64,000 nt of DNA, taken from NCBI GenBank assembly GCA_963786935.1, contig CAWBAN010000003.1, positions 81,790-145,789 of the forward strand, written 5' to 3'. The notes beneath the pieces are model-generated. The model searched no databases. It had not been told where the DNA came from and was given only the letters and a program-made list of their open reading frames with translations. The stretch comes from an uncultured bacterium. Its GTDB lineage: Bacteria > Krumholzibacteriota > Krumholzibacteriia > Krumholzibacteriales > Krumholzibacteriaceae. Numbering within the stretch: the stretch's first letter is position 1; each line of letters begins with the position of its first letter. Made by a program: the position numbers and the translations under genes. Below, in pieces: positions 11,672 through 34,855 of this stretch.

Positions 11672-13180
11672 ATGGACCGATGCGCGGGCATTCTCCTCCA
11701 CATCACGTCGCTCCCGTCGCGCCACTCGATCGGGGACCTCGGCTCGGGCGCGTACGCCTTCGCCGATTTCCTCGCGAGCGCGAAGCAGAGCCTCTGGCAG
11801 GTGCTGCCGCTCAATCCCACCGACGGGGCGCACGGCAACTCCCCCTACAGCAGCGTGTCGGCCTTCGCGGGGAACGTGCTCCTCGTCAGCCCCGAGCTCC
11901 TCGTCGACGAGGGGCTGCTCCGTCCCGAGGAGGCGCCGCCGCCGGCGCGCTCCGCGCTCGACCGCGTCGACTACCGCGCGGCCGCGATCGAAAAGCGGCG
12001 GATCCTCGAGACGGCATACGAGCGGTTCCGGTCCACGGGACGGTGGCAGGACGAGTACCGGCGGTTCCGCGCCCTCAACGCCCGCTGGCTCGACGACTAC
12101 GCGCTCTTCCTCGTTCTCAAGAAACAGTTCGGCGGCGTCGTCTGGAGCGAATGGCCCCGCGAGTTCCGGGACCGCGACGAGATCGCCCTCGGCGACGCCC
12201 GGAGCCTCTACGCCGCCGACATCGAGCGCACGTGCTTCTATCAGTACCTCTTCTTTCGGCAGTGGGCGGCCCTCAAGGCGTACTGCGGCGGCAAGGGGGT
12301 GCGGATCGTCGGCGACATCCCGATCTACGTCGGCTACGACAGCGCGGACGTCTGGACCCGGCGCCGCTTCTTCAAGCTCGATGCCGACGGCAGGCCGAAG
12401 TTCGTCGCGGGCGTGCCGCCGGACTATTTCAGCGAGACGGGACAGCTCTGGGGCAATCCCGTGTACGACTGGGACGCGCTGGCGGCCGACGGGTTCGGGT
12501 GGTGGATCGACCGGTTCGCCCACAACCTCGGCCTGTTCGACTTCGTTCGCGTGGATCATTTCCGCGGTTTCGTCGGGTACTGGGAGGTGGGCGCGGGGGA
12601 GAAGACCGCCGTCAGGGGGCGCTGGGTCAAGGCGCCCGCCGACGAGTTCTTCGGCGCGCTCCGCGCGAAATTTCCCGGCTTCCCGCTCATCGCTGAGGAT
12701 CTCGGGATCATCACGCCCGACGTGAAGGAGCTCATGGCGCGGCTCGGCATCCCCGGCATGCGCGTCCTCCTCTTCGCCTTCGGCGAGGACAATCCGGAGC
12801 ATCCCTATCTCCCGGTCAACTACGTCGAGAACTGCGTCGCCTATACGGGTACCCACGACAACAACACGGCGCGCGGCTGGTTCGAGCACGAGGCGCTGCC
12901 GGAGGAGCTGGAGCGCCTCTCCCTGTATCTCGGAAAGGAGCTCGCCGCCGGCACGATCCACCTCGATCTCGTCCGGCTCGTCATGGAATCGATCGCCGGC
13001 GCCGCCGTCATCCCGATGCAGGACGTGATCGGGCTCGGCGAGGAGGCGCGGATGAACCGCCCGGCGATTCCCCACGGGAACTGGGAGTGGCGCTGCCTTC
13101 GCGATCAGATCGGCCGGCCGGCGGCCGAAGCGCTCGCCGCGATGGTCGAGCGCTGCGGGAGGGCGCCGCGCACGCCATGA
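11672..13180 (+). CDS. malQ: 4-alpha-glucanotransferase (GH77)
   Basis: GILLHITSLP, WQVLPL, GQLWGNP, RVDHFRGF, IAEDLG and YTGTHDN motifs. Confidence 0.95.
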   Translation: MDRCAGILLHITSLPSRHSIGDLGSGAYAFADFLASAKQSLWQVLPLNPTDGAHGNSPYSSVSAFAGNVLLVSPELLVDEGLLRPEEAPPPARSALDRVDYRAAAIEKRRILETAYERFRSTGRWQDEYRRFRALNARWLDDYALFLVLKKQFGGVVWSEWPREFRDRDEIALGDARSLYAADIERTCFYQYLFFRQWAALKAYCGGKGVRIVGDIPIYVGYDSADVWTRRRFFKLDADGRPKFVAGVPPDYFSETGQLWGNPVYDWDALAADGFGWWIDRFAHNLGLFDFVRVDHFRGFVGYWEVGAGEKTAVRGRWVKAPADEFFGALRAKFPGFPLIAEDLGIITPDVKELMARLGIPGMRVLLFAFGEDNPEHPYLPVNYVENCVAYTGTHDNNTARGWFEHEALPEELERLSLYLGKELAAGTIHLDLVRLVMESIAGAAVIPMQDVIGLGEEARMNRPAIPHGNWEWRCLRDQIGRPAAEALAAMVERCGRAPRTP

Positions 13181-14397
13181 GCACCGACGCGATCGTTGTC
13201 GCCGTTTTCGGCTTCGTCTACGCGGGCATGATCCTCGGCCGCATCCCCGGCCTCGCCCTCGACCGGACGGGGGTAGCCCTTCTCGGGGCGATCGCGCTCG
13301 TCACCCTCGGCCGCGTCACGGTGCCGCAGCTCTCGACCGTGGTGGACGTACCGACGATCGCGCTCCTCTTCGGCCTCATGGTCGTCTCGGCGCAGTTCCG
13401 GATGAGCGGCTTCTACACGCGGCTCGTGAGGGGCATCGCCCGCGTCGACGTTTCCCCCCCGGCTCTCCTCGCGCTCCTCGTCGCCGTCGCCGGAGCCCTC
13501 TCGGCGCTGCTCGCGAACGACATCGTCTGCCTCGCCGTGGCCCCGGTCCTCGTGGAAGGCTGCGCGCGCCGGCGCCTGAACCCGAAGCCGTACCTCCTCG
13601 CGCTCGCGTGCGCCGCGAACGTCGGTTCGGCGGCGACGCTGATCGGGAATCCCCAGAACATGCTCATCGGGCAGGTGCTGCGGCTCTCGTTCGGCCGGTA
13701 TCTCCTCGACGCGGGCGTGCCCGCGATACTCGGGCTCTTCATCGTCTGGGGCGTCATCTGCCTGTTCTATCGGGGGCGCTGGGAGCAGGACACCCGGATC
13801 CCGACCGTCGAGCAGACCCCCTTCGACACGTGGCAAACGGTGAAGGGAATCGCCGTCCTCGCCGCGCTCGTCGTCGCCTTCCTCGCGGCCCCCTGGCCGC
13901 GGGAGGTTCTCGCGCTCGCCGCGGCGGGCTACCTCCTCTGCTCGCGCCGCATGGAGTCGCGGGAGATCCTCGGGCTCGTCGACTGGCAGCTCCTCGTTCT
14001 CTTCATGTCGCTCTTCGTCGTCAACCACGCGCTCGCCGCCTCGGGGAGCATGGACGCGTTCACCGGCGCCCTCGCCGGGCGCGGCGTCGATCTCGCCCGG
14101 CCCCCGTGGCTCTTCGGTTCGAGCGTCGTTCTCTCGAACCTCGTCTCGAACGTCCCGGCGGTGATGCTGCTTCTGCCGTCGGCTTCGCATCCGCTCGCCG
14201 GCCCGATCCTCGCGCTCTCGTCGACCCTGGCCGGCAACCTCCTCATCGTCGGTTCCATCGCCAACATCATCGTCGTCGACCAGGCCCGCCGCCTCGGCGT
14301 TTCGATTTCGTGGCGCGAGCACGCCGCGATCGGCGTGCCGGTCACCCTGCTCACCCTCGCCGTCGCGGCGGGGTGGCTCGCCCTGCGGGCGTTTTAG
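13177..14397 (+). CDS. ArsB/NhaD/SLC13-superfamily anion transporter
   Basis: Multi-TM; LANDIVC, ANVGSAATLIGNPQN, SNLVSNVPA and GSIANIIV motifs. Confidence 0.88.
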   Translation: MSTDAIVVAVFGFVYAGMILGRIPGLALDRTGVALLGAIALVTLGRVTVPQLSTVVDVPTIALLFGLMVVSAQFRMSGFYTRLVRGIARVDVSPPALLALLVAVAGALSALLANDIVCLAVAPVLVEGCARRRLNPKPYLLALACAANVGSAATLIGNPQNMLIGQVLRLSFGRYLLDAGVPAILGLFIVWGVICLFYRGRWEQDTRIPTVEQTPFDTWQTVKGIAVLAALVVAFLAAPWPREVLALAAAGYLLCSRRMESREILGLVDWQLLVLFMSLFVVNHALAASGSMDAFTGALAGRGVDLARPPWLFGSSVVLSNLVSNVPAVMLLLPSASHPLAGPILALSSTLAGNLLIVGSIANIIVVDQARRLGVSISWREHAAIGVPVTLLTLAVAAGWLALRAF

Positions 14398-14593
14398 CGG
14401 CGAATGGCCCTTCTGGTCCGCATTATGCTATGCCGCTCACGGGAAGGTGTGCCGGAAAAACGGGGGGCGGCGGCGATCCGGGAGACGCCCGAAAGATTTT
14501 TTGAAAATCGTGAGATTGTCGCTTGTAATTTTTGAGGCCTTGTATATATTGCATCACGATTGATCGAAGAAACGCACAGGAGGAACCTGAAAA

Positions 14594-14812
14594 ATGAGGA
14601 CCAATATTCCGTGCATCTCGTTCGGATGCCTGGTTAAGCCGGTAGCGGCGGCGCATGGCGCGCTCCTCGGTTTGGCGGGCGACGGCGCCCGCGGTGAATT
14701 GGATTCGAGATTCGGATATTCAAGCATAGCGCGGCCACGGAGCCGCTGCAGTATGGAGGGACCGGTTGATGGAAACGCAAGCTTCAACGCATCACGCTAC
14801 CGATGTTACTAG
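14594..14812 (+). CDS. Possible upstream small ORF (72 aa) before kamA-like gene
   Basis: AGGAGG at 14578-14583 about 10 nt before ATG; no recognisable family; overlaps the kamA-like start. Confidence 0.25.
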   Translation: MRTNIPCISFGCLVKPVAAAHGALLGLAGDGARGELDSRFGYSSIARPRSRCSMEGPVDGNASFNASRYRCY

Positions 14813-16100
14813 CGGAGAACAAAGCGAGGATCATCCTCCGCATTTATCTGGCTGCCTCGGTCCATTGTTCGACGGACAGATTTCTCCCCAGACAAGCATC
14901 ATTCATCATTCGCGCGTCTCCGGCGCGAGACCGCTCGCGGGCAAGCGCCCGAGCTTGAGCTCGCGCGTCCGGCTGTTCCGCCGCGCGTTTTTCCCCGAGG
15001 TGAGCGACCGCGACTGGAACGACTGGCGCTGGCAGATACGGAATCGCGTGCAGGACATCGCCCAGTTCGAGCGCATGCTCTCGCTCTCGGGCGACGAGCG
15101 CACCGCCATCGAGAAGGGCGGATCGCTCCTTCCCGTCGGCGTGACGCCGTACTACATGAGCCTGCTCTCGTACGACAACCCCGCGCAGGCCCTGCGCCGG
15201 ACGGTCATCCCGAGCACCGGCGAGTTCGTATGCTCGCCCGGCGAGTCCGCCGATCCGCTCGCGGAGGAGGCGACGAGCCCCGTGCCGGGTCTCGTTCACC
15301 GTTATCCGGACCGCGTGCTGCTCCTCGTGTCGGATTTCTGCTCGACCTACTGCCGCTACTGCACGCGCTCGCGCGTCGTGGGGCAGGGCGTGCTCCATCC
15401 GGCGGCGGCCCGGCTCGAGAAGGCGTTCGAATACATCCGCCTCAATCCCCAGATCCGCGACGTCCTCGTGTCGGGCGGGGAGCCGCTCGCGCTGAGCGAC
15501 GACCGGCTCGACTGGATCCTCTCGGAGCTCAGGCGCATTTCGCACGTCGAGATCGTGCGGATCGGGACGAAGGCGCCCGTCGTGCTGCCGCAGCGGATCA
15601 CGCCGCAGCTCACGCGGATGCTCCGCAGGCACCATCCGGTCTGGATGAGCATCCACTTCACCCACCCCGACGAGTGCACGGCCGAGGCGAGCCGCGCCTG
15701 CGCGCAGCTCGCGGACGCCGGCATCCCCCTCGGATCCCAGACGGTGCTCCTCAAGGGGATCAACGACAACGTCGAGACGATGAAGCGGCTCGTGCAGCGC
15801 CTCATGGCGATGCGCGTCCGGCCCTACTACATCTACCAGTGCGACCCGATCTACGGCTCGTCGCATTTCAGGACGTCCGTCGAGACCGGGATCGAGATCA
15901 TCCGGGGTCTCCGGGGATTCACGAGCGGCTACGCCGTTCCCACGTTCGTCATCGACGCCCCCGGCGGCGGGGGGAAGACCCCCGTCATGCCCGATTACGT
16001 CGTCGGACGGGAAGGGGATCACGTCGTGCTGCGCAATTACGAGGGCAATCTCTATCGCTACTACGATCCCCAGCCGGGCGGGGCGCTCGCGCGCGTCTAG
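14769..16100 (+). CDS. KamA-family radical SAM/PLP amino-acid 2,3-aminomutase
   Basis: WNDWRWQ, GLVHRYPDR, CSTYCRYC, PYYIYQCD and DAPGGGGK motifs. Confidence 0.93.
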   Translation: METQASTHHATDVTSGEQSEDHPPHLSGCLGPLFDGQISPQTSIIHHSRVSGARPLAGKRPSLSSRVRLFRRAFFPEVSDRDWNDWRWQIRNRVQDIAQFERMLSLSGDERTAIEKGGSLLPVGVTPYYMSLLSYDNPAQALRRTVIPSTGEFVCSPGESADPLAEEATSPVPGLVHRYPDRVLLLVSDFCSTYCRYCTRSRVVGQGVLHPAAARLEKAFEYIRLNPQIRDVLVSGGEPLALSDDRLDWILSELRRISHVEIVRIGTKAPVVLPQRITPQLTRMLRRHHPVWMSIHFTHPDECTAEASRACAQLADAGIPLGSQTVLLKGINDNVETMKRLVQRLMAMRVRPYYIYQCDPIYGSSHFRTSVETGIEIIRGLRGFTSGYAVPTFVIDAPGGGGKTPVMPDYVVGREGDHVVLRNYEGNLYRYYDPQPGGALARV

Positions 16101-16123
16101 GAGGCGGGGCCGATTTCCGGAGC

Positions 16124-17131
16124 ATGAAGATAGGCCTCACATACGATCTCAGGTCGGAGTATCTCGCCATGGGCTACGGCGAGGAGGAGACCGCCGAGTT
16201 CGATCGGGAGGAAACGATCGACGAGCTCGAGGGGGCCGTTCGCCGGCTCGATCACGCGACCGACCGGATCGGCAGCGCCCGGCGGCTCGTCGAGCGGCTC
16301 GCCGCGGGGGACCGCTGGGATCTCGTGTTCAACATCGCCGAGGGGCTCCGCGGGCTCGGCCGCGAGGCGCAGGTGCCGGCGATTCTCGACCTCTACGGCA
16401 TCCCGTACACCTTCTCCGATCCGCTCGTCATGGCGCTCACCCTGCACAAGGGCATGACGAAGCACGTCGTCCGCGACGCCGGGATTCCGACGTGCGATTT
16501 CGCGATCGTCGAGAGCGAGGCGGATGCCGGGGCGGTCCGCTTCGGGCCTCCCTATTTTCTCAAGCCCGTCGCCGAGGGGACGAGCAAGGGGATCACGTCG
16601 AAGTCGATCGTGAAGGATCGCGCGGCGCTCGGGCCGCTCTGCGGCGAGCTCGTCCGGGAGTTCAAGCAGCCCGTCATCGTCGAGGAGTTCCTGCCGGGCC
16701 GGGAGTTCACCGTCGGCGTCCTCGGCACGGGGCCGCGGGCCGAGGCGATCGGAAGCCTCGAGATGGGCCTTCGGCCGGGCGCCGAGGACAACGTGTACTC
16801 GTACGTCAACAAGGAGCAGTGCGAGGAGCTCGTCGAGTACATCCTCGTCAGGCCCGACGGCGACGCCGCGGTGCGCGAGGCGGAGCGCATCGCGCTGAAG
16901 GCGTGGCGGATTCTCGGCTGCCGCGACGCCGGACGGGTCGACCTGCGGTGCGACGGGCGCGGGCGGCCGCAGTTCGTCGAGATCAATCCCCTCGCGGGGC
17001 TGCACCCCTCTCATTCCGACCTCCCCATATTGTGCACGAAGCTCGGCATACCGTACGTGTCACTCATCGACCGCATCCTGCGTTCCGCCGCCGAACGGGT
17101 GGAACGCGAAGCGGCTCACCCTCGCCCGTAA
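16124..17131 (+). CDS. Ddl-like ATP-grasp ligase 1
   Basis: VFNIAEG, KPVAEGTSKGI, EEFLPGREFTV, RVD and EINPLAG motifs. Confidence 0.88.
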   Translation: MKIGLTYDLRSEYLAMGYGEEETAEFDREETIDELEGAVRRLDHATDRIGSARRLVERLAAGDRWDLVFNIAEGLRGLGREAQVPAILDLYGIPYTFSDPLVMALTLHKGMTKHVVRDAGIPTCDFAIVESEADAGAVRFGPPYFLKPVAEGTSKGITSKSIVKDRAALGPLCGELVREFKQPVIVEEFLPGREFTVGVLGTGPRAEAIGSLEMGLRPGAEDNVYSYVNKEQCEELVEYILVRPDGDAAVREAERIALKAWRILGCRDAGRVDLRCDGRGRPQFVEINPLAGLHPSHSDLPILCTKLGIPYVSLIDRILRSAAERVEREAAHPRP

Positions 17132-17138
17132 GGTCGTC

Positions 17139-18203
17139 ATGCGCGTCGCGATTCTCTTCAATGCCGTGAGCGAACAGGCGAAGACGGACGAGCTCGACGT
17201 GCTCGTGCAGCTCGACGCCGTGCACGCGGCGCTCGGCCGGCTCGGGCACGAGGCGATCAAGGTGCCGTGCGGCTTCGACGTGAGCGCCGTCGTCGCCGAG
17301 CTCGACGCGTTCAGGCCCGACGCGGTGTTCAACCTCGTCGAGTGCCTCGAGGGGTACGGGCGGCTCATCTTTCTCGTGCCGGCCGTCCTCGACGCGAAGG
17401 GAATCGCGTATACCGGCTCCCCGGCGGAAGCGCTGTTCCTCACGTCCCACAAGGTGCTCGCCAAGGAGCGGATACGGGCCGGCGGGCTCCCGACGCCCGA
17501 TTGGATCGGCCCGTGGCCCGGCGGCGGAATGGCGCCGATCGTCGAGCGGCGCGCCCGCACGCGGCGCAAACCGAGCTACATCGTCAAGGCCGTCTGGGAG
17601 CACGCGTCCTTCGGCATGGACGACGACGTCGTCGTCCGGCAGGCGGACGAGGCGAAGCTCCGGCGGCTGATGGAGGAATGGTCGCCGCGCCTGCGCGGCG
17701 AGTGCTTCGCCGAGGAATTCATCGACGGCAGGGAATACAACATCTCCGTCATCGCGACCCCCGACGGGCCGCGCGTGCTGCCGGTCGCGGAGATCCTCTT
17801 CATCGATTACCCGAAGGACAAGCCGAAGATCGTGAGCTACAAGGCCAAATGGGAGGAGGATTCGATCGAATATCGCAGCACGCCCCGCAGCTTCGATCAT
17901 TCCCCCGATGACGCGAAGCTCCACGAGGATCTCCGCCGCCTCAGCAGGACCGCGTGGGACCTCTTCGCGCTGAGCGGGTACGCCCGGGTCGATTTCCGCG
18001 TCGACCGCAAGGGGCGTCCATCCATTCTCGAGATCAACGCGAATCCCTGCATTTCGCCCGATTCGGGGTTCATCGCCGCGGCGCAGCAGGGAGGCTTCGA
18101 TTACGACGCCGTCATCCGCGGCATTCTCGAGGACGCGGTCCGCAAGCCGCGCTGCGCGCCGTCCGTCGGGACCGATCCGAAGGCCGGGGAAGGCCGCTCA
18201 TGA
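17139..18203 (+). CDS. Ddl-like ATP-grasp ligase 2
   Basis: VFNLVE, IVKAVWEHASFG, EEFIDGREY, YARVDFR and EINANP motifs. Confidence 0.88.
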   Translation: MRVAILFNAVSEQAKTDELDVLVQLDAVHAALGRLGHEAIKVPCGFDVSAVVAELDAFRPDAVFNLVECLEGYGRLIFLVPAVLDAKGIAYTGSPAEALFLTSHKVLAKERIRAGGLPTPDWIGPWPGGGMAPIVERRARTRRKPSYIVKAVWEHASFGMDDDVVVRQADEAKLRRLMEEWSPRLRGECFAEEFIDGREYNISVIATPDGPRVLPVAEILFIDYPKDKPKIVSYKAKWEEDSIEYRSTPRSFDHSPDDAKLHEDLRRLSRTAWDLFALSGYARVDFRVDRKGRPSILEINANPCISPDSGFIAAAQQGGFDYDAVIRGILEDAVRKPRCAPSVGTDPKAGEGRS

Positions 18204-18228
18204 GCGAACACGACGGAGGTGCCGCGCG

Positions 18229-18744
18229 TTGAACGGGAAAGCCCCGGAATCGGGCTCGATGAGCGGCGTTTCGTTCCGCCACGACGTGCGTCCCGATGAC
18301 TGCGGGACGGTGCGTGATATCGTCGCGGCGACGGGCTATTTCACGCCGAGCGAGGTCGACGTCGCGGTCGAGCTCGTGCAGGAGAATCTCGCCAAGGGCG
18401 CCGCGGCGAGCGGATATCATTTCATTTTCGCCGAGCACGGGGGGAAGACGATCGGCTACCTCTGCTACGGGCCGATCCCGTGCACGATCTCGAGCCACAA
18501 CCTCTACTGGATCGCCGTTGATCCCCGCCACCAGGGCAAAGGGCTCGGCAAGGCGCTTATGCGCGAGGCCGAGAAATTGATCGGGGAGGCGGGGGGCACG
18601 CGCATCTACATCGACACTTCCTACAAGGCTCAGTATGAGGACACGAGGGCCTTCTACCTGTCGCTCGGGTACGAGCTCGACGCGCTCCTCAGGGATTTCT
18701 ACGCTCCCGGCGACGACAAGGTGATCTACCGGAAGCTGCTCTGA
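18229..18744 (+). CDS. GNAT-family N-acetyltransferase
   Basis: LYWIAVDPRHQGKGLG acetyl-CoA motif A; AFYLSLGY motif B. Confidence 0.9.
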   Translation: MNGKAPESGSMSGVSFRHDVRPDDCGTVRDIVAATGYFTPSEVDVAVELVQENLAKGAAASGYHFIFAEHGGKTIGYLCYGPIPCTISSHNLYWIAVDPRHQGKGLGKALMREAEKLIGEAGGTRIYIDTSYKAQYEDTRAFYLSLGYELDALLRDFYAPGDDKVIYRKLL

Positions 18745-18769
18745 GCGCCGGCCGGTATCAGCGGCGCGT

Positions 18770-20016
18770 TCAATCGGGGGAGACGAGCGCTCCCGCGCCG
18801 AGCGCGCCGATAAGGACCGTCCCGTACGAGCCGCGCGGCAGGAAGAATCTCACGAAACGCTTGAATCGTCCCGCGCCGGCGCCGGCGTCGTCCGCCTCGA
18901 CCGGGCCGAGCGTGAAATCCGTGGCGTCGACGAAGAGCGGCCGCTCGACCTCTCCGAACGGAAGGCCGCGAAGGCCCGGGACGCGCAGAGCGCTCAGCGC
19001 GACGCGTTCGCCGGCGAGCGCGGCCTCGGCGGCGCTTCGCCACGGATCCTCGAGCTTCGTCTCCGGCGAGAACAGCGGAACGAGCGTCCCGGCGAGTCCG
19101 GGAGGAATCGCCGAGGCGCGCGGCGTCGCCGGATCGCCGAAACGCGAGGGGATCCCGATCAGCGGCGGGGCGCACGCCTCCGCGACGAAGCGCCGCGCGA
19201 CGTCGTTCCAGAGCTTGGACTGGTACGCCTCGATCGAGATCCGGCGGATGAACGGCGGAAGCGCGCCGAAGCCGGCGCGGAAATCCCCGCCGGTCCCGGC
19301 GAGACGCTCGATGACCGCCCGCTCGGGGCAGGGGGGAGCTTCCGCGCGAGCGAGTCCCAGTTCCCCCACGCGGCGGCGATCGCGCGCTTGATCTCCTTGC
19401 GCTCCCGCGAATCCTTCCGGTCCGGGACGGCGATGAGCAGCTCGAGCGCCCCTTCGAAGTCCCCGTCGATGAGCCGCCGGGCGGCGAATCCCCTGCCGTG
19501 CCGCGCCGAGCCGAACCGCTGCTCGCCGAAGTAATTCACAAAACGCAGCGCGCGGCCCCCGGCGCCGGGAAGCGCGAGGAGCCGTCTCGCCTCCGTCATG
19601 CGCGCGCACTGGCGCCGGGTCAGGCCCCGCACCGTCACGCGGAACCGGTTGCCCGATATGTCCCCGGCGGAAAGGGGGGCATCGAGCGCCCCGATTCTCT
19701 CGATGCTCCATCCGGCCGTCCCGTCGGTTTCGGGAGCGCGCTCGGCGTCGCGGCGGGGGAACCGGACCGACACGTGCTGAACGGTGAGCGCGTGCCGGTC
19801 CTTGAGCCCGGCGTGGCCGATCCGCTCGAGCGGCACGCGAAGCCGCGCCGAGACGCGCTCGAGCGCCTCGAGAGTGCCGAGGTCGCGCTTCGTGAGCCGG
19901 TAGATGACGAAAGGGCCGGGGGACGCCGCTGCGCGCGCCGCGGCAACGCGCCTCGCCGCGGCGGGGGCGAGCACTTCCTCGACCATGAAATCCTCAGGGC
20001 GGCTCTTGATCTTCAC
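18770..20016 (-). CDS. truD: tRNA pseudouridine(13) synthase; frameshift near 19331-19336
   Basis: KIKSRPEDFMVEE, AGLKDRHALT, GNRF and NYFGEQRFG in one frame; AYQSKLWN and FFLPRGSYGT in the other. Confidence 0.88.
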
Positions 20017-27407: not shown

Positions 27408-27487
27408 CGGATGCAGAAGCGTAGTGGTGATTGTGCGCGATCAATAATCCTCTCGCCGAAAGCGGCGAGTCGGAGAAAGGATCAGTC

Positions 27488-30400
27488 ATGACACATCGGA
27501 AAGCATTATTGAGCTGCGCAGCGGCACTTCTTGCACTCCTTATCCTGCTCCCGTCGGTGCAGTCGGCCGATCCCGTCGAAGGGGTCAAGGCCAAGATCGC
27601 GCCGGCGCTCGGAGTGCAAATGGCCGCCGCCCAGCCGGGCGACTACGTGACGGCGATCGTGAAGTTGAACACCGTCGCGAACGTCAAGGCGATCCGCGGC
27701 GACAGGAAAGCGGTTTTCACCGAGCTGCGCGCCGTCTCAAAGCGGACGCAGGACGGCCTCGTACAGTATCTCGGGACGGCCGCCGTGAAACCGAAGGTCA
27801 AGTTGGTCCGGCAATTCTGGATCGACAACATCGTGCTCGTGCAGGCGACTCCGGACGTGATCAGGGAGATCGCCGCGCGGCCCGACGTCCGCGAAGTGTT
27901 CGATAACTATACGGTGACCATGCCGCCGCGTCCCGGCGACGGAGGTCACCCGGTGCTCCAGCAGGCGGCGCCCCTCTGGGATGCCCTCGGCAAGATCGGC
28001 GCCAAGCAGGTGTGGAGCACGTACGGGATCAACGGTACGGGTGTCAGGGTCGGCGGCCTCGATACGGGCGTCGATATCACGCACCCGGACATCGCCGGCA
28101 AGATGATCACGAACAATCCCTCCGATCCGACATACCCGGGGGGATGGGCCGAGTTCAACTCGACCGGCGGCATCGTGCCCGGATCGCTGCCCCGCGATAC
28201 CGACCAGCACGGAACGCATACGACGGGCACCGCGATCGGCGGCAGCGCGAGCGGGTACCCGATCGGCGTGGCCCCCGGGGCCCATTTCATGCACGGCCTC
28301 GTCATCCCGGGCGGGAGCGGAACGTTCGCCCAGGTGGCGGGCGGCATGCAGTGGATCATCGACCCGGACGGCAACCCGGCGACGAACGACGGCGCCCAGG
28401 TCGTCAACATGTCGCTCGGCGGAACGGGCACCTATTCGGAAATGGTCGCTCCGACCGACAACATGGTCGCGGCGAACGTGTTTCCGAGCTTCTCGATCGG
28501 CAACAGCGGACCGAACGCCTCGACGACGGGAAGCCCCGGCAACGTGCCGAGCGCCTTCGGCGTCGGCGCATCGGACAGCCTCGACGTGATCGCGTACTTC
28601 TCGAGCCGCGGTCCCGTGACGTGGAACTATCCGCCGTACGTCGGCACCTGGATCAAGCCGGACATCTCCGCGCCGGGCGTCGACATCTTCTCGTCCATTC
28701 CGGGCGGGGGATACGCAGGGGACTGGGACGGTACGTCGATGGCCGCGCCGCATGTGACGGGCACCGTGGCCCTCATGCTCCAGGCCAACCCGACCCTCAC
28801 CGTCGAGCAGACGAAGCTGCTCCTCCAGCAGACCGCCGTTGACCGCGGCGATCCCGGCATGGATAACACGTACGGCTGGGGCCGCATCAACGCCTTCGCG
28901 GCGGTGTCGGCCGCCCTCACGGGCATCGGCACCCTCGAGGGGCACGTGTACAGCAGCGCCGGCGGCCTGCCCGTGCAGGGCGCGAAGGTCCGGCTGACGG
29001 ACACCGGCCAGCAGGTGTACACGAACGCGGCCGGCTATTACATGCTGAAGGCGGTCGCCGGAATCCACAGCGTGCAGGTATCGCGCTTCGGCTTCGACGC
29101 GGTCACCGTGACCGTGAACATCGCGGCCGACGTGACGACCACGCAGGATTTCACGCTCACGCAGCTGCCTTCCGGAACGATCGCGGGATACGTGACCGAT
29201 GACGAGACGGGCGTCGGCATCGCCGCCTCCATCTCGGTCAAGTATCTCGGCGATCCGGTCTTGACGATATCGACGAATCCCGCGGACGGGTACTACAGCG
29301 TCACGCTCCCGACGGGGACGTACGATCTCGTCTTCAACCCGTCCTTCCCGTATCCCATGACGACGAGGAACGGCATCGCCGTCGCCGAAGGCGCGACGAC
29401 GACGCTCGACGTCGCCCTCGGACGCGCGCAGATCCTCATCGTCGACGACGACGCGGGCAAGGAGTACCAGACCTACTTCGAAACGGCCGTGGCCGGTTCG
29501 GGCAGGTCGTATCTGACGGTGAGTGCGCCGCCGAACGCGGCTACGATGGCCCTCTTCGAGTCGGTCATCTGGCTCACCGGTAACGACTACACGACGACCC
29601 TGACCGCGACCGACATGACCGAGATCGCCGCCTTCCTCGACGGTGGTGGACGGCTCTTCATGACGGGTCAGGACATCGGGTACGATATCGGCACGACGAC
29701 GTTCTATACGAATTATCTGCATGCGTCGTACGTGCAGGACGACGTGGGGCTCGGCGGCGTGCTCGGCGTCGCGGCGAGCGCCGTGGGCAACGGATTCACG
29801 TTCGAGATCAAGGGCGGATCGGGCGCCAACAACCAGGCGTATCCGTCCGAGATCAATCCGGTCGCCCCGGCGTCGCCGGCGTTCGTGTACGATCCGGCAG
29901 TCCCGGCTGCCGCGGCGACCGCGAACGACGTCGTGAAGAACGGCGTCTCGGCCGACGCGATCACCGGCTCGGGGACCGCGGGTCTCACGTTCGAGAACGG
30001 CACGTACAAGCTCGTCTACTTCGCCTTCGGCTTCGAGGCCGTGGCGGACGCGACGACTCGCACGATGCTCATGGACCGGGTTCTCGACTGGCTGCAGGGC
30101 TATCCGAAGATAGTCCATACGCCGCTCGGGGACACCGAGAACGCGACGAATCCCTACCGGATCGCCGCGGTCGTCACCTCGGATTACTTCGCGCTCGATC
30201 CCTCGACCATCGCGCTCGTGTACGACGCGGGGCTCGGGGACGTGACCGTGCCGATGACGGCGACGGGCGTGCCCGACGAGTACGAGGCGTTCATCCCGGC
30301 GCAGGCCATCGGGACGGAAATCGCGTACTACCTCACGGCGAGCGACGTCGAAGGACACGTCACGACCCACCCGATGGGGGCTCCCGCCGCGCGGCACATC

Positions 30401-33400
30401 TTCCACGTGATGTGGGACACCGAGGATCCCGTCGTGATTCACGTGCGGCACCACAACACGAACGATCTCGATGGTCCCTATCATATCTACGCCGGCGTGA
30501 CCGATAACATCGGCGTGGAATCGGTGTACCTCATGTACGCCAAGAACGGCGGGACGGCCCATCGCCTGCGGATGGAGCTCCTGCCCGACGGGCGCTTCCA
30601 TGGGGCGATCCCGGGACCGACGGCGGTCGGCGACTATTTCGATTACTGGATATACGCCATGGACGAGGCATACGCGGGGAACGTCACGCGCGTGCCCGCG
30701 ACCGGCGCGTACCGGTTCGAAATCGTCGAATACTTCCTGTGGGATTTCGAGCCTGACGACGGCGGCTTCGCGCAGACGGGCAACATCTGGGAGTGGGGCA
30801 TGCCGACGACGGGCCCCAACGCCGCGCATTCGGGCGTGAACGTCTGGGCGACCAAGCTCGCGACGACCTATCCGGCCTCGTCGAACGCGAAGCTCGACGC
30901 GCCGGAGATCACGATCGCGGCGAGCAAGCCGTACACGATTCTCTCGTTCTGGCACTGGTACGAAACGGAGAGTACGTACGACGGCGGAAACGTGAAGATC
31001 TCCGCGGACGGCGGGGCCACGTGGACGCTCGTCACGCCGATCGGCGGCTACGACGGAACGGCGAGCACGGCGAACGCGGGGATTCCCGGCGAGAAGTGCT
31101 TCATCGGAACGGCGAACATGTTCTGGCAGCAGGAGATGTTCGACCTCTCCGCGTACGTCGGGCAGTCGATCAAGGTCCGCTTCCACTTCGGGAGCGACGG
31201 CAGCGTCCAGAAATCCGGCTGGTACGTCGACGACGTCATGATCCGGAGCACCGACACGGACGACTACCCGCCGACGATCAGCGGAACGACCGTGCCGGGG
31301 AGCACCTTCGACACGGCCGGCCCGTACGCGATCACGACCCACGTGAACGATATCCTGTCGGGCGTGGGGGTCGTGTCGCTCTTCTACACGACGGATAACG
31401 GACTCACCTTCACGGAAGTGCCGATGGCGCACGGCGCGGGGGATCTCTACAGCGGAGCGATCCCGGGCCAGCCGAACGGCACGAAGATCAAGTTCTACGT
31501 GAAGGCCGTCGATTCGTCGGCCGAGGCGAACGAAACCGTCGATCCGGCGCTCGCGCCGGCGATGCTGTATTCGTTCGGCATCATGCCCTCCTCGGACATC
31601 CTCGTCGTGGTGAGCGGCTCGACCTCGGGCACCTCGCTCGCCATGTTCCAGGAAGCTCTGACGACGGCGGGCTATGACGCCGACTACTGGAACCGCACGA
31701 CCCAGGGCTGGCTCACGACGGACAAGCTGCTCCTCTACAAGTACATCTTCGTCGATGAGAACAGCGGGCTCACGGCGGCCCAGATGACCGGCCTCACGGA
31801 CTATCTGGCCGCGGGAACGCAGGGCGCCAAGAAGCGGCTCGTGCTCATGGGCCGCGATCTCGGCTACAACTCGACCACGCGTCCGTGGCTCGAGCAGTAC
31901 CTGCGCGCCAACTACGTGCAGGACAACCCGAACTACTGGCAGATCACCGGGTATCCGGGCGATCCGATCGGCGCGGGCGAGAGCTTCGTCATCTCCGGGT
32001 CGTATCCGGACGAATGGCAGCGCTCGACGACCTGGCCGGGCGGCGAGATCGTGTACCAGTACACGGGTACCGGCACCGCGAGGAACCGGAGCGAGCTGCA
32101 GGGCGAGTACGAGAAGGAAGGCAAGGAGTGGGACGGCATCGTCCCGAACACGCCGATCAGCCTCGATGCGGCTGCGGCGATCAAGTACAACGCGACGAAC
32201 TACCGTTCCGTCGCCTTCGCCTTCAACCTGTACTACATCCTGCAGGCCGATCGCCGGGCGGCGGTGATGGGTCGGACGATCGCGTGGTTGTCGGCGCCGG
32301 ATATTCTCCACACGCCGCTCCACGACACCGAGGATACGTCCAATCCGTATCCGATCGTCGCGAGCATCTATTCCGAGACGCTCGATCCGACGCGTCTCTA
32401 CATGACGTATGATAAGGGCTCGGGTCCGGTCGCGGTCCTCATGACGCCGACCGGCACGCCGAACGAGTACCGCGCGTACATCCCGGCGCAGCCGAACGGC
32501 ACGACGGTGCAGTACTACCTGAGCGCGGCCAACTTGGACGGCACGACGAGCTATCATCCGTCCGACGCTCCGGCGAACAAACACGTCTTCCGCGTGACGA
32601 CCGACATCACGCCGCCCGAGATCGTCCACGTGCCGCTCGGCAATTCGGCCGACGTCACGGGACCGTATCTCGTGAAGGCGACGATCACGGACAACATCGG
32701 CGTCAATCCGGCAGCCGTGTTCCTTTCGTACAACAAGAACGGCGGCGCCAGCTCGACGGTCGCCATGACCGCCATGGGCGGCGACGTCTATCAGGCGTCG
32801 ATCCCCGGCCCGGCCGTCGTCGGCGATGTGTTCAACTACTACATCACCGCGCGCGACGTGGCCTCGGTGCCCAACGTCGGACGCAGTCCGGCGGCGGGGT
32901 ACCACATGTTCATGATCGTCGATTACTACGCGTGGGACTTCGAGGCCTCCGGCGGCGACTTCGCGGCGGCCGGCACCGATTGGGAATGGGGCGCGCCGAG
33001 CTACGCTTCGGGACCGCCCGCGGCCCACTCGGGAACGAAGCTGTGGGGAACGAAGCTCGCGGGAACCTACTCGGCGAGCTCGAACTCCCGCCTCGAGACC
33101 CCGACGGTCACGGTGCCGACCTCGGCCCCGTACGCGACGCTGACCTTCTGGCAGTGGTACGCGAACGAGACCAACTACGACGGCGGCAACGTGAAGATCT
33201 CGACGGACGGCGGAGCGACCTGGACGCTGCTCAACGGGGATGTCGCCTACGACGGGACGTCCAAGTCGAACACGGCAGGCATTCCGCTCGAGTCGATCTA
33301 CACGGGAACGACGACCGGCAACTTCTGGAACAAGGTGACGGTCAACCTCACCGCGTACCGGGGCCAGCCGGTCAAGATCCGGTTCCACTTCGGAGCGGAC

Positions 33401-34855
33401 GGATCGTTCCAGTACGCCGGCTGGTACGTCGACGACGTCATGATCGCCGGTGTGCCGGCGGACGCGAATCCGCCGGTCTTCGTATCGACCACGGTGCCGG
33501 GCAGCACCTGGGATACCGTCGGACCGTACGTCGTGAAGACGAAGGTCAGGGACGCGCTCTCGGGTCTCGCCTCGGTGACGATGTACTACAGCGTCGACAA
33601 CGGCGTGAGCTGGACGACGGTCGCGATGACGCCGACGGGTGTCGCCGACGAATTCGGCGGCAACATCCCCGGCCAGCCGTCGCGCACGCGGATCAAGGTT
33701 TATGTCGCGGCGAACGACAACGCCGGGAATACGGGCCTCGATCCGGCCGGCGCGCCGGGCGCGACCTACCAGTTCGGCGTCATGCCGTCGGGCGATTACC
33801 TCGTGATCCTGGGCGGCAGCGCGCCCTCGCCCGCCAGCAGCTTCACCGACGCCTTCACGGCGATCGGGAAGACGTGCGACACGTGGAACTGGGACACCCA
33901 GGGTGTGCCGACGCTCGCGATGCTGAACGCCTACGTGGGCGTCATCGTGGACGAGAGCTCCTACTTCGACACGGCACAGCTGGCGCTGCTCACGAGCTAC
34001 CTCGATCAGAACGACGGCTCGAAGCAGCGGATCGTGTTCTGGGGACGGGATCTGTCCTACGGCTCGGGCGCACCGCGTACCTTCATGGAGAAGTATACGG
34101 GCATGGCCTACGTGAAGGACGATCCCGGCTCGACGTACCGGTGGCTGTGGAGCACTCCGGGCGATCCGATCGGAAACGGCGAGAGATTCGCGATCACCGG
34201 GACCTATCCCGATGAGCTGAAGCTCTCGACGCTCTATCCGGGCGCCCAGATCATCTTCAAGTACCACCTGTCGTCGACCACCGCGCTCGACAACGTCGGG
34301 AGCGAGGAAGAGCTCATTGCCTACTACTACAAGGAAGGCAAGGAATACGACGGGGTATGGCCGATGGTTCCCGCCGCGCCCGACTCGGCCGCGGCAGGAC
34401 GCTACGTCGGCACGTACCACGCGTCGGTCTACTTCGCGTTCCAGTTCAGCTACGTCACCGATGCCGCCCGCAGGGCCGCGGTGCTCGACCGTTCGCTGAA
34501 CTGGCTGACGACGGCGACGACGACGCTCGGAGAGACTGTATCGAAGGAAGATACGACTCCGGAGATTCCGGATCGGATCACCCTCGCGCAGAACTATCCG
34601 AACCCGTTCAACCCCGTCACGACGATCACGGTCGGCGTGCCCGCGAACTTCAGCGGCACCGCCGAGCTCCGGATCTACAACGTGAAGGGAGAGCTCGTCA
34701 GAACGCTGCATCAGGGCGCCATCAAGCCCGGCGTCCACACGTTCCGTTGGGAAGGCACCAACGACGGTGGGCGCAAGGTGACATCCGGTATCTACTTCTA
34801 CAGATTCGTCTGTGGAACTGAACGGATAACCAAGAAGATGGTGCTCCTGCGGTAG
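27488..34855 (+). CDS. Giant secreted S8 subtilase with carboxypeptidase-regulatory-like, Ig-like, immune-inhibitor/MAM-like repeats and FlgD-Ig C-terminal domain
   Basis: LDTG, HGTHT and GTSMAAPHV catalytic triad motifs; signal and propeptide; ends LAQNYPNPFNP...KKMVLLR. Confidence 0.92.
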   Translation: MTHRKALLSCAAALLALLILLPSVQSADPVEGVKAKIAPALGVQMAAAQPGDYVTAIVKLNTVANVKAIRGDRKAVFTELRAVSKRTQDGLVQYLGTAAVKPKVKLVRQFWIDNIVLVQATPDVIREIAARPDVREVFDNYTVTMPPRPGDGGHPVLQQAAPLWDALGKIGAKQVWSTYGINGTGVRVGGLDTGVDITHPDIAGKMITNNPSDPTYPGGWAEFNSTGGIVPGSLPRDTDQHGTHTTGTAIGGSASGYPIGVAPGAHFMHGLVIPGGSGTFAQVAGGMQWIIDPDGNPATNDGAQVVNMSLGGTGTYSEMVAPTDNMVAANVFPSFSIGNSGPNASTTGSPGNVPSAFGVGASDSLDVIAYFSSRGPVTWNYPPYVGTWIKPDISAPGVDIFSSIPGGGYAGDWDGTSMAAPHVTGTVALMLQANPTLTVEQTKLLLQQTAVDRGDPGMDNTYGWGRINAFAAVSAALTGIGTLEGHVYSSAGGLPVQGAKVRLTDTGQQVYTNAAGYYMLKAVAGIHSVQVSRFGFDAVTVTVNIAADVTTTQDFTLTQLPSGTIAGYVTDDETGVGIAASISVKYLGDPVLTISTNPADGYYSVTLPTGTYDLVFNPSFPYPMTTRNGIAVAEGATTTLDVALGRAQILIVDDDAGKEYQTYFETAVAGSGRSYLTVSAPPNAATMALFESVIWLTGNDYTTTLTATDMTEIAAFLDGGGRLFMTGQDIGYDIGTTTFYTNYLHASYVQDDVGLGGVLGVAASAVGNGFTFEIKGGSGANNQAYPSEINPVAPASPAFVYDPAVPAAAATANDVVKNGVSADAITGSGTAGLTFENGTYKLVYFAFGFEAVADATTRTMLMDRVLDWLQGYPKIVHTPLGDTENATNPYRIAAVVTSDYFALDPSTIALVYDAGLGDVTVPMTATGVPDEYEAFIPAQAIGTEIAYYLTASDVEGHVTTHPMGAPAARHIFHVMWDTEDPVVIHVRHHNTNDLDGPYHIYAGVTDNIGVESVYLMYAKNGGTAHRLRMELLPDGRFHGAIPGPTAVGDYFDYWIYAMDEAYAGNVTRVPATGAYRFEIVEYFLWDFEPDDGGFAQTGNIWEWGMPTTGPNAAHSGVNVWATKLATTYPASSNAKLDAPEITIAASKPYTILSFWHWYETESTYDGGNVKISADGGATWTLVTPIGGYDGTASTANAGIPGEKCFIGTANMFWQQEMFDLSAYVGQSIKVRFHFGSDGSVQKSGWYVDDVMIRSTDTDDYPPTISGTTVPGSTFDTAGPYAITTHVNDILSGVGVVSLFYTTDNGLTFTEVPMAHGAGDLYSGAIPGQPNGTKIKFYVKAVDSSAEANETVDPALAPAMLYSFGIMPSSDILVVVSGSTSGTSLAMFQEALTTAGYDADYWNRTTQGWLTTDKLLLYKYIFVDENSGLTAAQMTGLTDYLAAGTQGAKKRLVLMGRDLGYNSTTRPWLEQYLRANYVQDNPNYWQITGYPGDPIGAGESFVISGSYPDEWQRSTTWPGGEIVYQYTGTGTARNRSELQGEYEKEGKEWDGIVPNTPISLDAAAAIKYNATNYRSVAFAFNLYYILQADRRAAVMGRTIAWLSAPDILHTPLHDTEDTSNPYPIVASIYSETLDPTRLYMTYDKGSGPVAVLMTPTGTPNEYRAYIPAQPNGTTVQYYLSAANLDGTTSYHPSDAPANKHVFRVTTDITPPEIVHVPLGNSADVTGPYLVKATITDNIGVNPAAVFLSYNKNGGASSTVAMTAMGGDVYQASIPGPAVVGDVFNYYITARDVASVPNVGRSPAAGYHMFMIVDYYAWDFEASGGDFAAAGTDWEWGAPSYASGPPAAHSGTKLWGTKLAGTYSASSNSRLETPTVTVPTSAPYATLTFWQWYANETNYDGGNVKISTDGGATWTLLNGDVAYDGTSKSNTAGIPLESIYTGTTTGNFWNKVTVNLTAYRGQPVKIRFHFGADGSFQYAGWYVDDVMIAGVPADANPPVFVSTTVPGSTWDTVGPYVVKTKVRDALSGLASVTMYYSVDNGVSWTTVAMTPTGVADEFGGNIPGQPSRTRIKVYVAANDNAGNTGLDPAGAPGATYQFGVMPSGDYLVILGGSAPSPASSFTDAFTAIGKTCDTWNWDTQGVPTLAMLNAYVGVIVDESSYFDTAQLALLTSYLDQNDGSKQRIVFWGRDLSYGSGAPRTFMEKYTGMAYVKDDPGSTYRWLWSTPGDPIGNGERFAITGTYPDELKLSTLYPGAQIIFKYHLSSTTALDNVGSEEELIAYYYKEGKEYDGVWPMVPAAPDSAAAGRYVGTYHASVYFAFQFSYVTDAARRAAVLDRSLNWLTTATTTLGETVSKEDTTPEIPDRITLAQNYPNPFNPVTTITVGVPANFSGTAELRIYNVKGELVRTLHQGAIKPGVHTFRWEGTNDGGRKVTSGIYFYRFVCGTERITKKMVLLR

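Follow-up and report, generated by a model that had tools for sequence, protein, structure and literature searches.

Background

Few fates of beta-lysine are known in bacteria, namely fermentation, conversion to the osmolyte N-acetyl-beta-lysine, modification of elongation factor P (EF-P) and incorporation into some antibiotics. N-acetylated dipeptide solutes such as N-acetylglutaminylglutamine amide (NAGGN, made by Ngg) and N-acetylaspartylglutamate (NAAG) are produced by the combined action of an acetyltransferase and an ATP-grasp ligase, which are sometimes parts of one protein. For the beta-lysine osmolyte, PMC3543383 describes a lysine aminomutase of the KamA family together with an acetyltransferase as the known route to N-epsilon-acetyl-beta-lysine. 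Here we analyze a four-gene locus of an uncultured bacterium of the family Krumholzibacteriaceae (phylum Krumholzibacteriota, assembly GCA_963786935.1), carried on a 64,000-nucleotide stretch of contig CAWBAN010000003.1 that is referred to below as the window. At positions 14769-18744 of the window, four co-oriented genes separated by gaps of 23, 7 and 25 nt encode a KamA-family aminomutase, two ATP-grasp ligases with the fold of D-alanine--D-alanine ligase (Ddl), here termed Lig1 and Lig2, and a small N-acetyltransferase of the GNAT family.

We propose, as a reading that is probable rather than secure, that the four genes form a biosynthetic cassette that converts free L-lysine into a small, amide-linked and N-acetylated beta-lysine compound. 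All of the enzymes belong to known superfamilies. Within the reach of our literature searches, which found no paper on the cassette, neither the gene combination nor the paired non-Ddl ligases nor the product has been characterised; the passages on Pelobacter and Halobacillus deal only with AblAB or with unrelated genes. If the proposal is true, it adds a widespread, ligase-dependent fate for beta-lysine, and thousands of genes labelled 'D-alanine--D-alanine ligase family protein' are mis-annotated as cell-wall-related.

Results and discussion

The four genes recur as a unit across phyla

The cassette begins with the KamA gene (14769-16100, plus strand), assigned to the radical S-adenosylmethionine (SAM) and pyridoxal 5'-phosphate (PLP) dependent lysine 2,3-aminomutase family from Pfam and NCBIfam models and an alignment with PDB entry 2a5h. 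Lig1 (16124-17131) and Lig2 (17139-18203), both assigned from Pfam, NCBIfam and AlphaFold models searched with Foldseek, follow on the same strand, and the GNAT gene (18229-18744, with an alternative ATG start at 18259), recognized by the Pfam domains Acetyltransf_7 and Acetyltransf_1, closes the series. A pattern scan for Lig2 with one genome per species returned 70 loci (designated by L numbers below), of which 66 carried a Lig2 relative of at least 36% identity. When only loci with enough flanking sequence were counted in this Lig2-anchored sample, Lig1 was found near Lig2 in 57 of 60 (it is not present in L018, L053 and L054), KamA in 50 of 55 (not nearby in L026, L028, L029, L053 and L054) and the GNAT gene in 49 of 53 (not nearby in L024, L045, L054 and L058); all four genes occurred together in 39 of 46. 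The order KamA-Lig1-Lig2-GNAT is kept in nearly all loci, KamA being the last gene in L067 and L068. Cassettes were found in Krumholzibacteria-type genomes, Desulfobacterales, Planctomycetota, Gammaproteobacteria, Bacteroidota and Ignavibacteriota, the gammaproteobacterial hosts including Woeseiaceae, Lysobacterales and the cultured Dasania phycosphaerae GY-19 (L049). Because the same gene order recurs across phyla, the arrangement is not a matter of chance, and we conclude that the four genes are a functional unit. An earlier note made on this DNA had described four co-oriented genes with gaps of 25 nt or less and had taken them for one unit, a view that would have suffered had the genes failed to occur together elsewhere; the open reading frame (ORF) coordinates bear out the spacing, and the neighbourhood check across genomes and the fusions described next bear out the unit.

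Fusions between members of the cassette are frequent. Among 33 longer Lig2 homologues, 29 were Lig1-Lig2 fusions and one was a Lig2-GNAT fusion. Of 1128 representative Lig2 clusters retrieved at E ≤1e-30, the best 150 comprised 109 with Lig2 alone, 26 with Lig2-GNAT, 13 with Lig1-Lig2 and two with split matches, and in the loci L016 and L018 Lig2 and GNAT likewise share a single ORF. Some of the fused calls could be artefacts of assembly or gene calling, although their numbers are large.

Within the phylum, the cassette has a patchy, accessory distribution. Lig2 was detected in 56 of 201 genomes sampled, with all 14 other members of the same genus positive, as compared with one of 27 further genomes of the same family and 39 of 87 genomes of another family. 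All-against-all clustering of flanking ORFs, together with a Pfam search of 103 flanking ORFs from 14 diverse loci, revealed no further conserved partner, and the genes that neighbour the cassette vary by lineage. Isolated neighbours include an SLC12-type permease in L028 and VanZ in L040 and L043. Directly after one gammaproteobacterial cassette (L031:10239-12140) lies a glutathionylspermidine-synthase-like gene with CHAP and GSP_synth domains, a single case of a polyamine-conjugation enzyme beside a putative polyamine-like pathway. In the Planctomycetota loci a gap of about 600 nt separates KamA from Lig1, and in L022 a 193-residue ORF with a putative metal-binding domain of the CxxCxxCC type (PF03692) lies between these two genes (L022:5418-5999); its product might serve the radical SAM enzyme.

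The aminomutase is predicted to act on free lysine

The KamA protein contains the Pfam domains Radical_SAM and LAM_C and aligns from end to end with the Clostridium lysine 2,3-aminomutase of PDB entry 2a5h (363 residues, E 2e-142). The motifs CSTYCRYC (the CxxxCxxC cluster motif), YIYQCD and IDAPGGGGK align with their counterparts in 2a5h, and the Arg that follows the cluster motif, which we take to be the binder of the substrate carboxylate, is also retained. Both Asp residues that presumably bind the epsilon-amine of the substrate, one in QCD and the other in DAPG, are present in all 37 cassette KamAs scanned. The protein passes the KamA-family model TIGR00238 (346 bits, cut-off 199), and its best NCBIfam score is obtained with the AblA model TIGR03820 (497.2 bits, slightly below the cut-off of 525.4), followed by 445 bits for glutamate 2,3-aminomutase and 381 bits for arginine 2,3-aminomutase; it fails the EpmB model (246.8 bits against a cut-off of 369.3). 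Since AblA is the best-scoring model and both Asp residues and the PLP lysine are retained, free lysine is the best reading of the substrate.

The genome, which is 96.5% complete, encodes a single KamA. A search of the whole genome returned no AblB (TIGR03827) and no EpmA above its cut-off: the best match to the EpmA model, 254 bits against a cut-off of 287, lies in a 533-residue frame that is taken to be an ordinary lysyl-tRNA synthetase. A search for the EF-P of this genome by its loop motif gave nothing usable.

Two ligases with the Ddl fold that are not Ddl

Lig1 and Lig2 are about 30% identical to each other. In both, Pfam detects Dala_Dala_lig_C only, Dala_Dala_lig_N (PF01820) being found in neither, and both score far below every NCBIfam cut-off for Ddl and Van ligases; with the best Ddl model (NF002378, cut-off 243) Lig1 reaches 146 bits and Lig2 105 bits. 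The AlphaFold models, with predicted local distance difference test (pLDDT) values of 92 for Lig1 and 89 for Lig2, nevertheless show an N-domain fold that is Ddl-like in both proteins despite the missing PF01820 match. The best Foldseek matches of the Lig1 model are Ddl structures aligned over the full length with template modelling (TM) scores of 0.74-0.82, the Lig2 model likewise matches Ddl structures best, over its full length and with TM scores of about 0.7-0.8, and all of the best matches listed for the two models are Ddl or D-alanine--D-lactate (D-Ala-D-Lac) ligase structures.

We compared family alignments of Lig1 and Lig2 with the canonical Ddl that the same genome encodes elsewhere (C2:374639-375652), which scores 328 bits against the cut-off of 243 and carries both Pfam Ddl domains. 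Both ligases look catalytically competent, because the ATP-grasp catalytic Lys, Arg, Asp, Glu and Asn residues are kept. The GG.S.E motif is lost in both, and the His of the HGG motif of the genome's own Ddl is replaced by Glu (E73 in Lig1, E68 in Lig2). In the omega loop, which reads VYSYVNKE in Lig1 and IVSYKAKW in Lig2, the Lys is kept and the Tyr is replaced by Glu and by Trp, respectively; in the SL motif the Ser is kept, and at the position of the Leu Lig1 has an invariant Asp299 and Lig2 has Gly310. In Ddl, the omega loop provides a Lys-Tyr pair, and the Ser-Leu pocket is assumed to receive the second D-Ala. Lig2 also carries a loop WEHASFG and the pair K237-W238. We conclude that Lig1 and Lig2 are not D-Ala-D-Ala ligases, and the extra acidic residues suggest cationic substrates. 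A structure-based prediction of a Lig1-Lig2 complex gave a score of 0.02, which speaks neither for nor against binding. Within the coordinates chosen for it (L055:5959-6954), the Lig1 homologue of one Bacteroidales locus contains one in-frame stop codon.

Several expectations of the earlier note agree with these results. It had listed the CxxxCxxC motif, the PLP lysine and the Asp residues of QCD and DAPG as kept, all of which the alignment with 2a5h confirms, and had expected a basic substrate, which is narrowed here to an enzyme that looks lysine-specific from the ranking of the AblA, glutamate and arginine models. It had also called the omega loops of both ligases non-canonical and set the ligases apart from Ddl; the strings are present with the Tyr replaced relative to the genome's own Ddl, and the scores below the cut-offs, with a true Ddl encoded elsewhere, point the same way.

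The acetyltransferase and a fifth gene

The GNAT protein gave no match at E ≤1e-3 to the AblB model TIGR03827. Its best named family is RimI (TIGR01575), at 45.9 bits against a cut-off of 86.4, and a faint match to streptothricin acetyltransferase was recorded (E 6e-4). The closest structure is PDB entry 2r7h, which matches over the full length (E 1e-43) with roughly half of the residues identical by a hand count from the alignment. This entry is titled 'putative D-alanine N-acetyltransferase of GNAT family'. Judging from the sequence match, 2r7h probably represents the corresponding cassette member of a different organism, and its title appears to have been guessed from adjacent genes annotated as 'Ddl'. 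No published function of this protein is known to us.

In 28 of 53 testable loci a fifth gene, of about 577 codons, lies within or beside the cassette and encodes a GNAT domain fused to a deacetylase of the acetylpolyamine amidohydrolase type. The N-terminal 250 residues are a GNAT domain in 15 of 15 members, and the C-terminal half is closest to acetylpolyamine amidohydrolases (6phr, E 6e-69; also 3q9b). The gene usually lies between Lig2 and GNAT, as in L049:8005-9738; it is placed between KamA and Lig1 in L040 and L061 and past the GNAT gene on the opposite strand in L044, and at L020:8056-10317 it forms one ORF with the terminal GNAT. It does not occur in the window, and the genome is without an orthologue, having only HDAC-family paralogues that are 28-41% identical. 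The type of deacetylase favours small-molecule chemistry, and the fusion fits acetylation as a reversible or protecting step.

A fixed proline codon in the KamA extension

Relative to 2a5h, the cassette KamA has an N-terminal extension of about 70 residues. Its sequence and length differ across phyla, and an acidic Pro-Pro motif is constant (for example EDHPPH, EDEEPPG, EEPPG or DEPPS). The KamA proteins of L067 and L068, loci with KamA in last position, are without the extension, and for them the codon scan listed no Pro-Pro motif. In the window, the motif reads SEDHPPH and its proline pair is encoded by CCU-CCG at 14835-14840 (plus strand); examples from other loci lie at L049:4654 and L020:4553. 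All 48 loci, which come from several phyla and comprise the window and 47 related loci, have CCT as the first proline codon of the motif, whereas the second varies. By comparison, CCT makes up 12.7% of the 1475 downstream proline codons of the same KamA genes, and two conserved control prolines of KamA use all four codons. The codon two positions ahead of the fixed CCT is always GAN, encoding Asp or Glu.

PMC8129111 describes CCC/U-C/U sequences as slow and prone to +1 frameshifting, and as mostly avoided at the first position of Pro-Pro pairs save where pausing may help, for instance near translation starts. Given the fixed codon and these properties, we suspect that the CCU has been selected to make ribosomes pause, or to act as a translational checkpoint, in the gene that opens the operon. 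No +1-frame stop codon following the CCU-C site was consistent among the loci. Pairing of the invariant CCUCC with the ribosome-binding site of KamA was considered as a separate candidate and rejected in its simple form, the pairing probability being at most 0.08 of 5 in 27 of 27 loci; the minimum-free-energy partners of CCUCC were inconsistent between loci. Codon-level control at Pro-Pro motifs could be studied on this fixed codon as a natural test case. Neither the codon-level motif nor the fifth gene figures in the earlier note.

Proposed pathway and its alternatives

In the pathway that we propose, KamA would convert L-lysine into beta-lysine, as its conserved residues suggest. Lig1 and Lig2, probably acting as a pair, would then each use ATP to form a single amide bond by way of an acyl-phosphate, one or more of the substrates being cationic, and would yield a di- or tripeptide, or a short oligomer, that contains beta-lysine. 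GNAT would acetylate a free amine of the substrate or of the product of the ligases. In about half of the lineages, this genome not among them, the GNAT-deacetylase fusion would add reversible acetylation, either in a protecting-group role or for turnover of the product. Most likely, the product would serve as a solute of the cytoplasm, be it a compatible solute or a compound resembling a polyamine. A fuller version, of low probability, can be put forward tentatively: Lig1 and Lig2 would constitute a two-subunit, sometimes single-chain, amide synthetase of undescribed N-acetylated beta-lysyl peptides, which bacteria from sediments and soils, in at least five phyla, would use as a solute or polyamine substitute; the output of the whole operon would be set at the ribosome by the slow, slippery CCU-CCN pair of the acidic Pro-Pro motif in KamA, and synthesis would hence depend on the status of EF-P or tRNA-Pro. 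Experimental access is offered by the cultured host D. phycosphaerae GY-19 and by the crystal structure of the GNAT relative, 2r7h.

Several observations weigh against the proposed pathway. The co-occurrence counts overstate independence because the sample is anchored on Lig2 and rich in close kin, so that they are not independent trials, and they were taken from the Lig2 side only. A role as a compatible solute is plausible; the genomic context lends it no direct support, because the annotated flanks show no transporter, regulator or stress gene with a consistent link to the cassette, and the sequencing runs and records of close relatives point to freshwater sediment, peat, groundwater and soil, in addition to marine groups, rather than to brines. 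The chemistry, including the acetylated beta-amino-acid peptide of the earlier note, and the order of the steps are inferred. Finally, GNAT and HDAC-family enzymes also modify proteins, and RimI is the best named family of the cassette GNAT, though far under its cut-off.

These last points bear on the alternative that the ligases attach beta-lysine to a protein, for instance EF-P or one of the ribosomal proteins, much as EpmA or RimK would, and that GNAT and the deacetylase act on protein lysines. KamA-family enzymes are generally known to feed the beta-lysylation of EF-P, this genome is without an EpmA above the cut-off, and EF-P acts on Pro-Pro motifs of the kind that is conserved in KamA. 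The patchy distribution of the cassette is no argument against such a role, since the modification systems of EF-P likewise have a patchy occurrence and move horizontally. The fixed CCU would also suit it, CCC/U-C/U sequences being slow and +1-prone according to PMC8129111. Nevertheless, we regard protein modification as improbable: the known members of the Ddl fold join small molecules, the deacetylase is of the acetylpolyamine type, no efp, small carrier protein or target gene was present in the 14 diverse annotated flanks, and KamA scores higher with the AblA model (497 bits) than with that of EpmB (247 bits).

Another way to employ two different ligases would be the synthesis of a storage or surface polymer, cyanophycin-like or of poly-beta-lysine, with GNAT capping the chain. 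A pair of ligases would suit a backbone-plus-branch or alternating polymer, lysine-derived monomers are rich in nitrogen, and a weak local match (E 7e-12) links Lig1 of L049 with the ATP-grasp region of cyanophycin synthetase. That match is, however, confined to the generic ATP-binding part, the cassette contains no Mur-ligase-like domain, primer gene or depolymerase, and the enzymes whose structures the two models match best among the matches listed make dipeptides or depsipeptides, so that we see only a slight chance for a polymer.

The cassette might also make a secreted, antibiotic-like beta-lysine peptide, with acetylation as self-protection, as by streptothricin acetyltransferase, and deacetylation as activation. 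Beta-lysine occurs in several antibiotics, the faint match of GNAT to streptothricin acetyltransferase points in this direction, an acetylase accompanied by a deacetylase fits the logic of a prodrug, and a patchy, horizontally moved distribution fits a secondary metabolite. Little credence can be given to this reading, though, when no exporter, resistance gene or regulator is consistently linked in the annotated flanks, the cassette lies among housekeeping genes that vary by lineage, and none of the 14 other genomes of the same genus lacks it, which is more like physiology than a strain-level weapon.

That KamA and GNAT are a plain AblAB-like pair making N-acetyl-beta-lysine, the known route according to PMC3543383, with the ligases as unrelated neighbours such as spare cell-wall ligases, is highly improbable, as GNAT falls outside the AblB family, the ligases lie between KamA and GNAT in nearly all loci, Lig2 and GNAT are fused in 26 of the best 150 representatives, and the ligases fail every Ddl cut-off in a genome that has a true Ddl elsewhere.

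Leader region and genes around the cassette

Upstream of KamA, a promoter-like site (TTGTAA, 16 nt, TATATT) lies in an AT-rich stretch at 14523-14550 (plus strand). It was detected by match to a sigma-70-like consensus only and is the single such match within 14300-19000, where shuffled sequences gave a mean of 0.4; the stretch is conserved in six of nine aligned Krumholzibacteria-type sequences, the window counted. Further downstream, an upstream ORF of 72 codons (14594-14812, plus strand), preceded by AGGAGGA, equipped with a strong ribosome-binding site and recognized by its conservation, crosses the ribosome-binding site and start codon of KamA in another frame. The open frame and the N-terminal motif (I/V)(A/S)FGxL(V/L)KP are kept in nine related loci, with synonymous changes, and the ORF bearing this motif was found in Krumholzibacteria-type loci only. 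It has no Pfam match and could encode a regulatory leader peptide. A scan of 13000-19500 against Rfam gave no match at E ≤1.

A 297-nt contig from an RNA library spans 14577-14873 with one mismatch. It is a weak hint of transcription, because DNA can occur in such libraries, and the lack of coverage past 14873 is no evidence of attenuation. The start of KamA is likely the ATG at 14769, since relatives and the RNA-library contig have TCG in place of the in-frame TTG at 14766. In the gammaproteobacterial cassettes, an inverted repeat of the form GCAGGTCGCCCA(A/T)CTGC is conserved about 20-35 nt 5' of the KamA ATG (L027, L032, L037, L044, L047, L049, L052, L059 and L063) and may represent an operator or an RNA hairpin.

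A MalQ gene lies two places upstream of the cassette, with a gene for a CitMHS-family transporter between them, and this linkage is kept in some close relatives only. Among the genes seen, those for trehalose are represented solely by a fragment of OtsA (7-795), 14 kb from the cassette; of the nearby trehalose genes that had been offered as a hint of an osmolyte, this fragment is what stands, and the hint is weak. Downstream, truD (18770-20016, minus strand) shows a TruD pseudouridine synthase match that is broken across two overlapping frames, the frame changing on the minus strand at about 19325-19335 in a run of C residues; this is either a true frameshift or a homopolymer error of the assembly. 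An ORF of 2474 codons at 27431-34855 (plus strand), with subtilase, MAM-like and FlgD-Ig domains, is unrelated to the cassette.

Comparison with known systems

The cassette resembles the EpmA/EpmB system in that a KamA-family aminomutase would supply beta-lysine that is then joined through an amide bond. It differs in that the joining enzymes are ATP-grasp ligases and not a paralogue of lysyl-tRNA synthetase, and in the failure of KamA with the EpmB model. With the synthesis of NAGGN and NAAG it shares a logic, not membership: those pathways use other ATP-grasp and GNAT families, have no aminomutase and make products of alpha-amino acids only.

With the Ddl and Van ligases, Lig1 and Lig2 share the whole fold (TM 0.7-0.8), the C-terminal Pfam domain, the catalytic residues and the Lys of the omega loop. 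They differ from them in their scores below the cut-offs and in the absence of a Dala_Dala_lig_N match, which the Ddl of the same genome has, in the changes at GG.S.E, the His of HGG, the Tyr of the omega loop and the Leu of SL, and in their occurrence as a co-conserved pair.

The likeness to AblAB lies in a KamA/AblA-type aminomutase followed by a GNAT in one operon, AblA being the top family score of KamA. The cassette departs from AblAB in that KamA scores 497.2 against the AblA cut-off of 525.4 and has an N-terminal extension that 2a5h is without, that its GNAT fails the AblB model, and that two ATP-grasp ligases, often fused to GNAT, are inserted between the two enzymes. As compared with AblAB, the cassette would extend the N-epsilon-acetyl-beta-lysine pathway by a ligation step.

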